DNA of 38,415 nt from a bacterium (GTDB lineage Bacteria > Patescibacteriota > JACMRA01): contig JAYUIW010000083.1 in the NCBI GenBank assembly GCA_043765655.1, forward strand, positions 1-38,415, given 5' to 3'. Positions 1,353 to 38,415 of this stretch are shown in pieces. How positions within the stretch are numbered: the first letter of the stretch is position 1; each line of letters starts with the position of its first letter. Under the pieces are notes generated by a model. That model had not been told where the DNA came from. It saw only the letters and a list, made by a program, of their open reading frames with translations, and did not search any database. A program made the position numbers and the translations under genes.

Positions 1353-1396
1353 AAAATCCCCGAGCCATTCGGCTCACCCCTTTATCAAAGGGTCAC
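1353..1396 (+). repeat. R3 double-hairpin module (AAAATCCCCGAGCCATTCGGCTCACCCCTTTATCAAAGGGT)
   Basis: Near-identical copies at 13602-13645, 19887-19929, 30474-30505 (partial) and 30782-30870 (with an R5 insert). Contains the hairpins GAGCC/GGCTC and CCCTTT/AAAGGG. Confidence 0.85.
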
Positions 1397-3606: not shown

Positions 3607-4247
3607 CTGTCATTCTGAGCAAATGCGAAGAATCCCTTGTTGTTCAAGACACACTTCCAACCATGTCATCCTGAATTTAGTTCAGGATCTAAGAAGGTTT
3701 TTTTAAGCTGTCATTCTGAGCAAATGCGAAGAATCCCCTGTTGTTCAGACTGAACTTTCACATGAGCCCCCGTCAACTTCGTTGACACCCCCTTAACAAG
3801 GGGGAACTCATAGTAAAAACTTTAATCTTGAATAAAAAACTCCAACTGTCATCTTGAATTTATCATGCCATGGCTTCCGTCGGAACAAGTCCGACTTGTA
3901 ACTAAGACTTTTCAGGATCTAGGAAGGTCGTAATTAATGTAAGGTAATTTTTGTAACAATAAAAGATTGAATAACTTTTACCTAAATAAGTATACAAAGT
4001 CCAATAATAATTTTTTTAGATTCTGAAACAAGTTCAGAATGACAAGTTATAAAGTATATCTTTTTAAGCCGTCATCTTGAGCGAAGCGAAAGATCTGTTG
4101 GTTGTTAAACTGCAAATAGTAACTTTTACAATATTTACAAATAACAGATTCTTCGTTGCACTCAGAATGACGAAATATTGAATTTGTTTTATTAAAGATA
4201 TGATTCAACTACCCCCAAGGCTTTACTTTCACCCCTACAAAGGGGTA
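3607..4247. repeat. Hairpin-module array. R1(+)3607-3646, R2(+)3664-3693, R1(+)3708-3747, R4(+)3766-3806, R2L(+)3846-3921, R2(-)4017-4044, R1(+)4069-4106, R1(-)4145-4172, R6-like 4212-4247
   Basis: Each module matched by eye to copies elsewhere in the window. The array sits in the 1.5-kb non-coding gap between rnj and tRNA-Phe. Confidence 0.85.
3846..3921 (+). repeat. R2L copy 1: R2 hairpin whose loop carries a ~50-nt insert containing the GTCGGA-ACAAG-TCCGAC hairpin
   Basis: Aligns with 13339-13416, 17804-17879, 30509-30586 and 34442-34518. All five copies are on the + strand. Confidence 0.85.
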
Positions 4248-7815: not shown

Positions 7816-8150
7816 CCCCTCTTATAAGGGGGTACAATTTCAAAAAATACTGTCACCCTATTTTTTACACTGTCATCTTGAGCATAGCGAAAGATCCCCT
7901 GTTGTTCAAACCAAAACTCCCACTGTCATTCTGAGCAAAGCGAAGAATCCCCTAGCTTTTGAGTTTATACAACCCCCAAGCTTCGCTTGACCCCTTCGGA
8001 TACATGCGTCGCCGTATCAAGTACGGCTGTACCAGGGTCTTCAAAAGGGGTATGCTCCCAAAAAACTGTCATCTTGAGCAAGTGAGAAGTGGGTTCGGGT
8101 TTCCCGAACAAAGCATTCGCCACGACATGCGAAATACTCCCTGTTGTTCA
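7816..8150 (+). repeat. Hairpin-module array. R7/R3-like 7816-7832, R1 7870-7908, R1 7923-7953, R4/R6-like 7971-7994, R5 7991-8050, R1 with a ~48-nt loop insert 8066-8150
   Basis: All modules are in + orientation, downstream of the phosphohexomutase gene. ORFs 7959..8165 and 8041..8241 are artefacts of this array. Confidence 0.85.
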
Positions 8151-8200
8151 AACCAAGTCTATTAATCAAAAATATACACTTGGTTAATGAAAGTAAAAAG

Positions 8201-9952: not shown

Positions 9953-10259
9953 CTGTCATCCTAAACTTGTTTCAGGATCTAAAATAGTAATTATTAGAAT
10001 TTATGGTCAAAAATTTACAGGTTTCGTTAAAAAATAAATTTAAGATTAAGATTTGTTATCAGGCTTACAATCTCTTAAAACAACCTTTTTAGATCCTGAA
10101 ACAAGTTCAGGATGACATAGTGGGAGTTTCAGCTTGAACAACAGGGGATTCTTCGGTTCCCTCAGAATGACAGTTTGTTTTAGGATTGTACCCCCTAGCC
10201 CCCTGACAGGGGGAATTATTTGGAATATAGGGGATCTTTCGCTTCGCTCAAGATGACAG
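9953..10259. repeat. Hairpin-module array. R2(+)9953-9985, R2(-)10090-10117, R1(-)10133-10173, R7 10198-10213, R1(-)10229-10259
   Basis: Matches to the R1/R2/R7 consensus. ORF 10046..10318 is an artefact of this array. Confidence 0.85.
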
Positions 10260-13152: not shown

Positions 13153-13645
13153 ACCCTCGGCACTTCGTGCCACTCCCTACATAGGGAGACCAAAACCACA
13201 GCTGTCATCTTGAGCGAAGCGAAAGATCCCCTGCTGTTCAGAATTTACTACCATTAGAACCCCTGTCAACTTCGTTGACATCCCCTTAATAAGGGGAAAC
13301 TTATAGCAAAAACTTTGATTTTGAGATAAAAACTTCCACTGTCATCCTGAACTTGTCATGTTAGAACCTATCGTCGGAACAAGTTCGACTTGCAACCAGT
13401 TACTTTTCAGGATCTAAAAAGATTGTTTTATGCTGTCATTCTGAACGAATGTGAAGAATCCCCTGTTGTTAGCTATAAAGCATGAACTATATTCACCCTG
13501 TCAGAGGGTTAGGCAGTACAAAAAAACATTTAAAATTGAATCAAACCAACAGATCTTTCGCTATGCTCAAGATGACGAAATAATAACTTTTAACATAAAA
13601 CAAAATCCCCGAGCCATTAGGCTCATCCCTTTATCAAGAGGTAAC
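13153..13645. repeat. Hairpin-module array. R4-variant 13153-13189, R1(+)13202-13240, R4(+)13260-13300, R2L(+)13339-13416, R1(+)13433-13470, R7 13496-13508, R1(-)13544-13578, R3(+)13602-13645
   Basis: This array fills the whole guaA-prs gap. ORFs 13451..13723 and 13623..13874 are artefacts of it. Confidence 0.85.
13339..13416 (+). repeat. R2L copy 2
   Basis: CTGTCATCCTGAACTTGTCATGTTAGAACCTATCGTCGGAACAAGTTCGACTTGCAACCAGTTACTTTTCAGGATCTA. Confidence 0.85.
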
Positions 13646-17803: not shown

Positions 17804-17879
17804 TGTCATCCTCAACTTGTCGTACCGAGGCTATCGTCGGAACAAGTCCGACTTGTAACCAGTTACTTTTCAGGATCTA
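17804..17879 (+). repeat. R2L copy 3
   Basis: TGTCATCCTCAACTTGTCGTACCGAGGCTATCGTCGGAACAAGTCCGACTTGTAACCAGTTACTTTTCAGGATCTA. Confidence 0.85.
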
Positions 17880-30473: not shown

Positions 30474-30946
30474 AAAATCCCCGAGTCACTAGGCTCACCT
30501 CCATCATACTGTCATTCTGAACTCGTCGTGCTAAAACCTATCGTCGGAACAAGTCCGACTTGCAACCAGTTACTTTTCAGGATCTAAAAAACTCCAAATT
30601 AGTTGTCATTCTGAGCGTAGCAAAGAATCCCCTGTTGTACACAATACACTCCAACCATGTCATCCTGAACTTGTTTCAGGATCTAAAAAAGTTATTAATA
30701 AGTTTCAGGATCTAAATTTGAGGTTTCGTAAATGAGGATATTAAGTTAGTTATACCCGTTTTATTATTTATCTTCCAAAATAAAATCCCCGAGCCATTCG
30801 GCTCACCCCTTTGGACACGTGCGTCGCCGTATCAAGTACGGCTGTACCAGTATCTTCAAAAAGGGGTAACAACCCCGAAGGCTTTGCCTTCACCTCCCCC
30901 CTGCACATGCATCGCCGTATCAAGTAAGGCTTTACCAGATCAAAAA
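30474..30946 (+). repeat. Hairpin-module array. R3(partial)30474-30505, R2L 30509-30586, R1 30603-30639, R2 30658-30690, half-R2 30702-30716, R3 with R5 insert 30782-30870, R6 30873-30897, R5-variant 30896-30946
   Basis: All modules are in + orientation. The array fills the glyA to pseudouridine-synthase gap. Confidence 0.85.
30509..30586 (+). repeat. R2L copy 4
   Basis: CTGTCATTCTGAACTCGTCGTGCTAAAACCTATCGTCGGAACAAGTCCGACTTGCAACCAGTTACTTTTCAGGATCTA. Confidence 0.85.
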
Positions 30947-34347: not shown

Positions 34348-34640
34348 CTCCCTGTCAGGGGGTACAAAAAAAGTTGTTTTTACACTGTCATTCTGAACGA
34401 ATGTGAAGAATCCCCTGTTGTTTAATGCAAAGTGCGAATTGTGTCATCCTAAATTTGTCGTGCTAGAACCTCTCGTCGGAACAAGTCCGACTTGCAACCA
34501 ATTACTTTTCAGGATCTAAAAAAGTTGTTTCTAAAGTTTTAGCTATATATTAAAATATACTTCTAAATAACCATAACACTAAAAACAACTATTTTTTAAC
34601 AAACAACCAACAGATCTTTCGTTACACTCAAGATGACGAT
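34348..34640. repeat. Hairpin-module array: R7 34348-34365, R1(+)34385-34422, R2L(+)34442-34518, R1(-)34606-34640
   Basis: Matches to the consensus modules, in the GT39-gatC gap. Confidence 0.85.
34442..34518 (+). repeat. R2L copy 5
   Basis: TGTCATCCTAAATTTGTCGTGCTAGAACCTCTCGTCGGAACAAGTCCGACTTGCAACCAATTACTTTTCAGGATCTA. Confidence 0.85.
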
Positions 34641-38204: not shown

Positions 38205-38320
38205 ACTAGAAAATGATTTATTCACCCCTATATTCAGAGTAGTTTTGACCGTTGTAGTTGTGCTTTGTGGAATAGAGTTTATATCAACCCATAGAATATC
38301 ATCACATTTATCAAGCTCAT

Positions 38321-38415
38321 TACACCTAACCCACTCCTAATTACCTCATTAATTCAAAGGTTTTGATAATTTTTTCATAAAAATTGAGGCAGGTTGAAGC
38401 TAGTTTTAGAATATT
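38321..38415. repeat. Right arm of the 95-nt inverted repeat (partner 5-99)
   Basis: See the left arm. Reading outward from the window, both ends give the same sequence: TACACCTAACCCACTCCTAATTACC..TTAGAATATT. Confidence 0.9.

Follow-up and report, generated by a model that had tools for sequence, protein, structure and literature searches.

Nested hairpin repeats in a Patescibacteria contig: a probable superfamily of 45-50-nt modules residing at loop-edge (A)AG sites

In 2008 Elhai et al. (Genome Res 18:1484; cited in PMC5861425 and PMC4390886) reportedly described small non-coding mobile modules without a transposase in Nostoc punctiforme (SDR4-6), with nested occurrences, and SDR5 is said to insert between nucleotides 3 and 4 of HIP1. 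Here we analyse an arrangement of this general kind in a contig of 38,415 nucleotides (nt) from a bacterium of the Patescibacteriota (JAYUIW010000083.1 of assembly GCA_043765655.1; the whole stretch is called the window below), in which hairpins lie inside the loops of other hairpin repeats. The inner hairpins belong to modules designated M1, M2 and R5, the outer ones to host repeats designated R1, R2, R3, R4-type and R6. Like the Nostoc SDRs these are tiny non-coding modules, each nested in a further short repeat at one defined point. However, the SDRs are 21-27 nt long, are confined to Nostocaceae and target a short palindrome (HIP1), whereas the present modules are 45-50 nt long, are found in a Saccharibacteria-like Patescibacteria genome of ~1 Mb, reside in the loop of hairpin repeats of 25-70 nt, carry a covarying hairpin of their own and have no sequence similarity to SDRs. 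We consider it probable, at roughly 0.6, that the nested architecture reflects one superfamily of 45-50-nt non-autonomous modules inserting at the loop-edge (A)AG of hairpin repeats.

Two of the host repeats resemble another described system. Ssn proteins are small single-domain GIY-YIG proteins, which bind the NTS/SRM hairpin repeats (CGTCATTCCCGCGMAVGCGGGAATCYRG) only as single-stranded DNA (ssDNA); their cleavage site lies upstream of the hairpin by a few nucleotides and not within the loop (Chenal et al. 2025, PMC11893778). Three nucleotides are needed before the palindrome, where GTC gives the repeat its orientation, the C after the palindrome is the base most crucial for binding, and cleavage still takes place when the target hairpin is split between two oligonucleotides; ssn genes typically have repeats on both flanks (PMC11893778). 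R1 and R2 are like NTS/SRM in their architecture, (C/T)GTC-AT-palindrome-ATC-C, in their 100+ copies and in flanking a GIY-YIG gene of ~100 amino acids (aa). In contrast, Chenal et al. 2025 (PMC11893778) report neither insertions within such repeats nor a mechanism of mobility.

Insertion of IS1397 and ISKpn1 into palindromic units and of IS110-family elements into repetitive extragenic palindromes (REPs) has been reported (Clement 1999; Tobes and Pareja 2006, as cited in PMC3116915). The likeness to these insertion sequences (IS), and to the filamentous phage that integrates into Neisseria dRS3, lies in the use of hairpin repeats as specific landing sites, with insertion within or beside the palindrome. 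They are, however, kilobase-sized and encode their own transposase, whereas the guest found here is 45-50 nt long and gene-less. Short hairpins, in M2 and R5 with CGTC at their foot, compensatory stems and a Y1 gene in the genome recall the REPIN/RAYT system and CGTC-tagged REPs, whose hairpins have a conserved unpaired tag (PMC3116915, PMC3733652). Unlike in REPINs there is no doublet organisation, the Y1 gene is IS200-like with unrelated end hairpins, and nesting in other repeats is not a REPIN feature. Finally, as with the Rickettsia palindromic elements (RPEs), palindromic repeats were found in frame in unbroken genes (ValRS-, PurL-, UvrD- and Ogt-like, and rve), but RPEs measure ~100-150 bp, are restricted to Rickettsia (PMC10969869) and have not been described as nested in a fixed loop, so that this is an analogy and not membership.

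The source assembly consists of 84 contigs totalling 1.05 Mb (35% G+C, 74% complete). In what follows C-numbers denote contigs of this genome, the window being C83, and G-numbers the other genomes compared. By a crude open reading frame (ORF) call ~81% of the genome is coding, and much of the remainder is made up of short hairpin repeats. The hairpin-in-loop pattern noticed in a first-pass annotation of the window proved to be real and genome-wide, and all three examples given there were found in place. Copies were classified according to their host. A simple flank-stem statistic was dropped in favour of this classification, being judged too crude because R1 stems hold G-A/G-A steps.

On one strand the three modules follow a single plan (^ marks the junction between host and insert): AAG^T.A..TGG, a 7-9-bp hairpin with a loop of 3-5 nt, and (GCC)TCGNCACGAC^AAG. 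They are 45-50 nt long and share their termini, 5' AAG-T.A..TGG ... GCCTCGNCACGAC-AAG 3'. M1, of which 34 copies were found in the genome with a covariance model, reads (GT)GAGAAGTGG, then the 7-9-bp hairpin, then RAGCCTCGCCACGAC. M2, the insert of the long R2 form (R2L), is present in ~22 copies genome-wide and reads on the reverse strand AAG-TAACTGGTTGCA-AGTCGGA-CTTGT-TCCGACG-ATAGCCTCGGCACGAC-AAG; R5 (~23 copies) reads on the reverse strand AAG-ATACTGGTACA-GCCGTA-CTTGA-TACGGC-GACGCACGTGTCC-AAG. R5 and M2 align in core and flanks. The reverse strand of M2 ends in GATAGCCTCGGCACGAC-AAG as against AAAGCCTCGCCACGAC-AAG in M1, and the 5' A..TGG motif is also common to the two. Judged from these alignments, M1, M2 and R5 constitute one superfamily of hairpin modules. 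Compensatory (double) substitutions were observed at 7 of 11 predicted M1 pairs. The stem subtypes of M1 include GTTCGGG/CCCGAAC, GTCTTGGG/CCCAAGAC, TGGTCTGGG/CCCAGACTA and ATTCGGG/CCGAAT, and every subtype is present in several hosts. A further module, M3 (TCCTCCC-WCGG-GAGGTG-variable hairpin-GGAGGGGGT), is unrelated to M1, M2 and R5; it occurs five times in the R1 loop, with differing inner hairpins, and twice elsewhere.

The hosts are abundant as empty, short copies. R1, with the consensus (C/T)GTCAT-YY-TGA-NN-loop(3-4)-N'N'-GAA-RR-ATC-CCCTGTTGTTCA, has 106 short copies genome-wide by a strict pattern, and R2 (GTCATCCTGAA-NNNNN-TTCAGGATC-TAAAAA) has 77-85. The two have the frame GTCAT-palindrome-ATC in common, and in 187 of 226 R1/R2 copies the YY/RR arm pairs are complementary, covarying while GTC...ATC is kept; by this common frame R1 and R2 are not fully unrelated hosts. 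R3, with ~50 copies genome-wide, has the consensus CCCCGAGCC-ATTC-GGCTCA-CCCCTT-loop-AAGGGG. Its CCCCTT-loop-AAGGGG hairpin ("hpA") recurs in the R4-type and R6 hosts, where it stands beside a second, variable hairpin. The three nested families had been presented as unrelated. This description had to be given up, since the inserts M1, M2 and R5 are interrelated and R1 and R2 share a frame, and M3 is left as the sole second class of insert.

Some features of the host repeats deserve mention in their own right. The commonest R1 core (14 of 106 copies) is GC-GAA-GC between two G-A steps. The oligonucleotide d(GCGAAGC) forms an unusually stable DNA mini-hairpin, and a stable GCGAAGC core would agree with folding of the DNA itself. 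R6 lies within a repeated unit of ~125 nt (TATACTCATTCTCATGCCAACTTGCAATTTTAGAAGAGTTATAAATTGG...GGGATTTAATTATGCAAGTTGGGGTGAGTTTTAGTATA), found on C24, C41, C51 and C77, which includes a TTGCAA...TATAAAT stretch resembling a promoter. Truncated palindromic forms of R2L were seen at C22:8788 and C37:8758 (GTCATCCTGAA-TTTATCGTGCCGAGGCTATCGTCGGAACAAGTCC-AGGATGAC), in which the left half is joined directly to an inverted R2 arm.

The inserts lie at the loop/stem junction, where they occupy an (A)AG on the 3' side of the loop, and not in the loop at large. In every host the target AAG either ends the loop or begins the 3' arm: GAGC-(G)AAG^CGAA in R1, GAA-ACAAG^TTCAGG on the reverse strand of R2, and TTGAAG^GGG or GATAAAG^GGG in hpA. 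Read in the common orientation, 21 of 30 M1, 15 of 19 M2 and 12 of 17 R5 copies have AAG on the 5' side, and AAG or AG follows on the 3' side in 22 of 30, 13 of 19 and 11 of 17, respectively. The (A)AG present on both sides of most inserts may be either a target duplication of 2-3 nt or an identity between the target and the end of the element. The genome contains 43,567 AAG sites, of which ~330 are loop AAG sites. When independent insertion events were counted minimally, as pairs of host and insert family, at least 9 of 11 had taken place at loop AAG sites (P about 1e-18). The earlier view that loops are the preferred target of insertion thus held as far as insertion into hairpins is concerned, but had to be narrowed to the (A)AG at the 3' loop edge and to one superfamily of inserts.

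Orientation is fixed as well. The hpA hairpin has AAG^GGG on both strands, and the curated inserts are all on the strand with the second hairpin downstream. An automatic, fold-based tally agreed with this for 16 of 19 classifiable copies, with 1 copy in the opposite orientation and 2 unclear. In this genome no bias was found in the orientation of the elements relative to the direction of neighbouring genes, and a transcription- or replication-strand cause of the fixed orientation is therefore not supported. The modules are discrete, interrelated and specific in site and orientation, with a hairpin kept by compensatory changes.

The distribution of empty and filled hosts shows how the long forms arose. 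The 34 M1 copies are distributed over R1 (~22), R6 (4), R3 (3), R4-type hosts (4) and a transposase gene (1), this last being the one copy of 34 outside recognised host hairpins; R1-borne M1 was found in all three R1 tail subfamilies. Of the R3 copies ~35 are empty, 11-13 hold R5 and 3 hold M1, the inserts always lying at a single site; R6 is represented by 7 empty copies, 4 with M1 and 1 with R5. In R3, R4-type and R6 hosts alike, R5 and M1 are found at exactly the same position. Four paralogous ~125-nt R6 units could be aligned base for base: two are empty, one carries M1 and one R5, the two inserts being 45 nt each and located at GATAAA^GGGAG. Since at most one of two different inserts can be ancestral at a given site, and since M1 recurs in several unrelated hosts, the long forms are insertions into pre-existing hairpins and not ancestral.

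Outside this genome M1 was found in relatives of the same family (8 copies in G001, 18 in G003, 1 in G004) and in three other genera of that family, with 1-2 copies each. It was absent from 35 genomes of other families in the phylum when searched with the covariance model. A search of 185,579 species genomes with the M1 pattern gave 29 matches, true only in two related metagenome-assembled genomes; the 47-nt matches in Bacteroidales and other groups turned out to be a conserved protein-coding stretch and were discarded. In the relatives M1 again resides in R1 and in an R6-type host, and in G003 it is found four times in the loop of a GGCAAAAC..GTTTTGAC hairpin.

Several observations weigh against the proposal that the modules insert at the loop edge of hairpins. 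In ISAs1-like transposase genes of G001 and G012, M1 is inserted at one codon (..ALHCQ^K..) where there is no hairpin, it lies in frame in rve/IS481-like genes of G017, G001 and this genome, and two or three copies in G001 and G003 have no visible host hairpin. The outer stem of R1 is weak, predicted at -1.9 kcal/mol, and would be negligible with a loop of 47 nt. The right-hand repeat is often only AG and is absent in the C51 copy, and runs of A blur the boundaries. Copy numbers exceed the number of independent events, because R1+M1, R2+M2 and R3+R5 composites have probably been amplified as units. Comparison of orthologous empty and filled sites was precluded by divergence, genes of the same-genus genomes being ~68% identical; synteny downstream of the phosphoglucomutase gene is lost in these genomes, and in other assemblies of the same gene the contigs end at the repeats. 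Neither of the candidate enzyme genes described below (GIY-YIG and Y1) is linked to the inserts.

Residence in a hairpin is, then, the rule and not a requirement. The rve/IS481-like ORF C27:25300-26194 is open through a 48-nt M1 (EIIDGK[VRSGDWVPQSKASPRQ]NQ), and its catalytic motif, SD^NGKEF, is divided by an M2-like element of 51 nt, through which the frame likewise stays open; M1 of G001 is found at the same IDGK site. Because the intragenic copies are in frame and free of stops, selection must contribute to the observed distribution. The ISAs1-like genes carrying the 47-nt M1 (L006 in G001:C14, L008 in G012:C59) are diverged from each other. Their upstream frame enters AAG-TGA and then the hairpin; slippage by -1 on A-AAG would restore the downstream frame. 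Programmed frameshifting or translational bypass at this AAG-TGA-hairpin might be imagined. Housekeeping genes contain repeats in frame, too. The ValRS-like gene C31:20882-24608 has R1 in both orientations (VILSKAKDP; EGILRDAQND), together with a DUF559-like and a hydrolase-like insert, and the PurL-like gene on the reverse strand of C23 (569-3278) has two antisense R1 copies. In-frame R4-type elements with nested M1 were found in the UvrD/PD-(D/E)XK helicase C1:268-2614 and in the Ogt-like methyltransferase C52:9494-10259.

The serious rival supposes that only sequence is targeted, an A-rich stretch ending in AAG, that no hairpin is recognised, and that copies survive where they do no harm. 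It draws on the AAG/AAA insertions without a hairpin in transposase genes of this genome and three other genera, on the in-frame, stop-free intragenic copies, which bear a signature of selection, on the ~81% coding content of the genome, and on the tolerance of the Ssn/NTS interaction to interruption of the loop (PMC11893778). However, it would leave unexplained that no M copy was found here in plain intergenic DNA, although the spacers between repeats should be equally harmless, that the second AAG in the 3' arm of ATTCT-type R1 is never used, and that CCCCTT..AAGGGG takes inserts at just one of its two symmetric AAG^GGG sites. We regard it as unlikely, though deserving to be taken seriously. 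If, instead, the hosts were the ends of MITE-like vehicles (MITE, miniature inverted-repeat transposable element) and the modules cargo captured once or a few times, perhaps through recombination or gene conversion among repeats, and then spread passively with no insertion activity of their own, one would understand why two unrelated cargos (M1 and M3) lie within R1 arms, why composites are present in high copy number with uniform junctions, and why R1-R2 tandems recur as units. Such capture is nevertheless improbable: the same module with the same boundaries and (A)AG flanks recurs across five or more host families, within transposase genes and beyond this genus, M1 stem subtypes are common to several hosts, and two modules of equal length occupy one site of paralogous units.

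Two further explanations find hardly any room. That the long forms are ancestral and the short ones arose by internal deletion would agree with the arms and subfamily variants common to short and long forms, and precise loss is conceivable. Yet R3, R6 and R4-type hosts have M1 and R5 at one shared site, where no more than one of the two could be ancestral, M1 would need ancestry in four unrelated families and in genes, and empty copies, which have a regular loop of 3-5 nt, exceed filled ones 3-5 to 1. The genome-wide catalogue of empty and filled versions that had been proposed as a check therefore speaks against deletion, with the paralogues aligning as empty, +M1 and +R5, and we consider this explanation very improbable. 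The same low standing is given to an RNA reading, in which the nested hairpins act as structured RNAs and the inserts are expansion segments retained for an RNA function. The inner stem is indeed kept by compensatory changes, and R3 ends in one orientation in a terminator-like T-run, but no Rfam match at E <= 1 was obtained on 7840-8170, only two tRNAs being detected elsewhere, copies are present in both orientations and within coding sequence, orientation is independent of the direction of flanking genes, and the R2 stem is followed 3' by an A-run, not a T-run.

If the modules do insert at the loop edge, the process may be pictured as follows. Once a host repeat is extruded as a hairpin its loop would be single-stranded, and modules would insert in a single orientation at the (A)AG of the 3' loop edge of R1, R2 and CCCCTT-loop-AAGGGG hosts. 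Insertion into the loop would spare the recognition features of the host (the GTC tag, the stem and the following C), so that the composite would stay 'alive' and be copied further; this would account for the 20+ copies of R1+M1 and R2+M2. The R1/R2 loop would be permissive because everything Ssn needs lies outside it. We infer the ssDNA or hairpin step, the permissive loop and the enzyme. The first-pass annotation had taken the nesting to imply a structure-specific insertion mechanism; such a mechanism is reasonable, but inferred and not demonstrated, and the same element is found at non-hairpin sites in transposase genes.

The search for hairpin-acting enzymes proposed at the outset did yield two candidates, an Ssn-type GIY-YIG ssDNA nuclease, with R2 and R1 on the flanks of its gene, and a Y1 transposase of IS200 type, either of which might take part in insertion. 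The GIY-YIG ORF (C51:16434-16742) encodes a single-domain protein of ~100 aa that matches PF01541 with 61.7 bits; no NCBIfam match above the cut-off and no PDB relative were found. R2 copies are located upstream of it, R2L (R2+M2) and R1 downstream. As in SRM/NTS repeats, GTC is present upstream of the palindrome, all R1 and R2 copies beginning with (C/T)GTCAT, and a C follows the palindrome (...AGAAT-C or AAGAT-C in R1, ...TTCAGGAT-C in R2). The published SRM pattern, HGTCWYN(0-2)YYVSBRHN(0-5)WNVSBRGN(0-2)RNCYNB, matched the genome once, outside all of the repeats, whose stems are AT-rich at positions for which the pattern demands S/B/R. As the repeats fail this degenerate pattern, R1 and R2 are here called only SRM-like. 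A truncated second GIY-YIG ORF (MKQYYIYILTNRKKTAFYAGVTNDLIRRVFEH...) was noticed at C57:5700-5900, just downstream of an R1 variant (CGTCATCCAGAGCGAAGCGAAGGATC).

The Y1 gene is a single IS200-type tnpA split between two contig starts, C35:6-119 (-) and C71:4-240 (+). The end hairpins of its element (CCCGCC-TTCA-GGCGGG and GCGTCC-TTCA-GGGCG) occur nowhere else in the genome and do not resemble M1, M2 and R5, and an origin of the inserts from the Y1 element was rejected. Y1 was found in 15 of 27 relatives, without relation to the presence of M1. CGTC stands at the foot of the hairpin in R5 (GCGTC-GCCGTA..TACGGC) and M2 (TCGTCGGA..TCCGAC), not in M1, and no GTAG/CGTC tag is uniform across the modules. 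Reverse transcriptase, TnpB and IS110 transposase were not found in the 74%-complete assembly. The possibility that M1, M2 and R5 are MITEs of a DDE insertion sequence also finds no support in their termini, as the 5' end TGAGAAGTGG and the 3' end CTCGCCACGAC are not inverted copies of each other; neither this genome nor 60 relatives yielded a longer element with such ends.

A bolder version of the loop-edge proposal can be put forward only tentatively, and we doubt it more than we believe it: M1, M2 and R5 might be an undescribed kind of gene-less 'hyperparasitic' DNA of ~47 nt that moves as a folded single strand and enters, in one orientation, the (A)AG exposed where the loop of an ssDNA hairpin meets its 3' arm, with the help of a host ssDNA enzyme (GIY-YIG or Y1) acting in trans. 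Residence in genes would be tolerated because two of the three sense frames are open. As the targets would include Ssn-bound SRM repeats, the element would be a parasite of a repeat system.

The features of the window are listed in Table 1. At 8066-8150 the R1 arms GTCATCTTGAGC...GCGAAATACT surround an insert of 45-47 nt, in which M1 consists of (GT)GAGAAGTGG, the hairpin GTTCGGG-TTT-CCCGAAC (8093-8109) and AAAGCATTCGCCACGAC. The flanks of this copy had been described as intact. This applies to other R1+M1 copies of the genome, whose arms are intact, but not to the copy in the window, where the 3' arm is AAATACT, not AAAGATC, and the outer stem has no predicted fold. R5 sits in the loop of the CCCCTT..AAGGGG hairpin at 7991-8050 (core 8007-8027) and is likewise enclosed by the second R3 hairpin, CCCCTT..AAGGGG, at 30806-30866 (core 30822-30842); a nested fold of R3+R5 was predicted for 30755-30870 (z = -4.3). 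Each R2L consists of R2 (GTCATCCTGAA..TTCAGGATC) and an insert of ~48 nt carrying CGTCGGA-ACAAG-TCCGAC. The five R2L and five R3 copies of the window are all on the + strand, and short R1 and R2 copies are found on both strands.

Table 1. Host repeats and nested modules located in the 38,415-nt window
Feature	Position	Strand	Details
R1 with M1 insert (R1L)	8066..8150	+	5' arm CTGTCATCTTGAGC; 3' part GCGAAATACTCCCTGTTGTTCA, arm decayed
M1 mini-element	8082..8127	+	covariance-model match; alignment, covariation
Empty R1	7872..7896	+	GTCAT-CTT-GA-GC-ATA-GC-GA-AAG-ATC
Empty R1, second copy	7925-7949		
R1 copy	13204-13228		
R4-type host	7977..8050	+	hairpin CAAGC-TTCG-CTTG (7977-7989), then CCCCTT..AAGGGG (7991-8050)
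R2 with M2 (R2L), subfamily B	3848..3919	+	loop TTTAT
R2L	13341..13414	+	one mismatch in inner hairpin (GTTCGAC)
R2L	17805..17877	+	
R2L	30511..30584	+	
R2L	34443..34516	+	
Empty R2	9955..9979	+	GTCATCCTAAA-CTTGT-TTCAGGATC
Empty R2, seven more	3665, 30659	+	
	4019, 4935, 10092, 16448, 17986	-	
R3 with R5	30787..30866	+	first hairpin GAGCC-ATTC-GGCTC
Third R5 core, decayed	30910..30930	+	host hairpin left arm lost
Empty R3	1358..1378	+	
Empty R3, further copies	13607, 19891, 30479	+	

Another repeated sequence marks the ends of the window. An inward-facing sequence of ~95 nt (ATACAATATTCTAAAACTAGCTTCAACCTGCC...) is common to 17 contig ends, including positions 1-99 and 38320-38415 of the window; the remaining occurrences are at the ends of 15 further contigs. 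A multicopy element ends in this sequence; its interior is missing from the assembly, and it is possibly an autonomous insertion sequence.

Nesting of this kind would mean that layered selfish DNA, with repeats inside repeats, can be sustained by the streamlined ~1-Mb genome of an ultra-small bacterium that is uncultivated. For annotation it is a warning: in such genomes repeat insertions account for many 'hypothetical' peptides, gene splits and contig breaks. The Ssn/SRM system becomes linked to Patescibacteria, and the loop of the SRM is suggested as a permissive site. With a defined module, termini, (A)AG target and orientation, the multiplication of gene-less hairpin repeats (REP, SRM/NTS, SDR) becomes testable at the bench. 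Should the hyperparasite proposal be true, the modules would be among the smallest known site- and structure-specific mobile elements, and would provide a natural read-out of ssDNA hairpin formation in a genome of the candidate phyla radiation (CPR).

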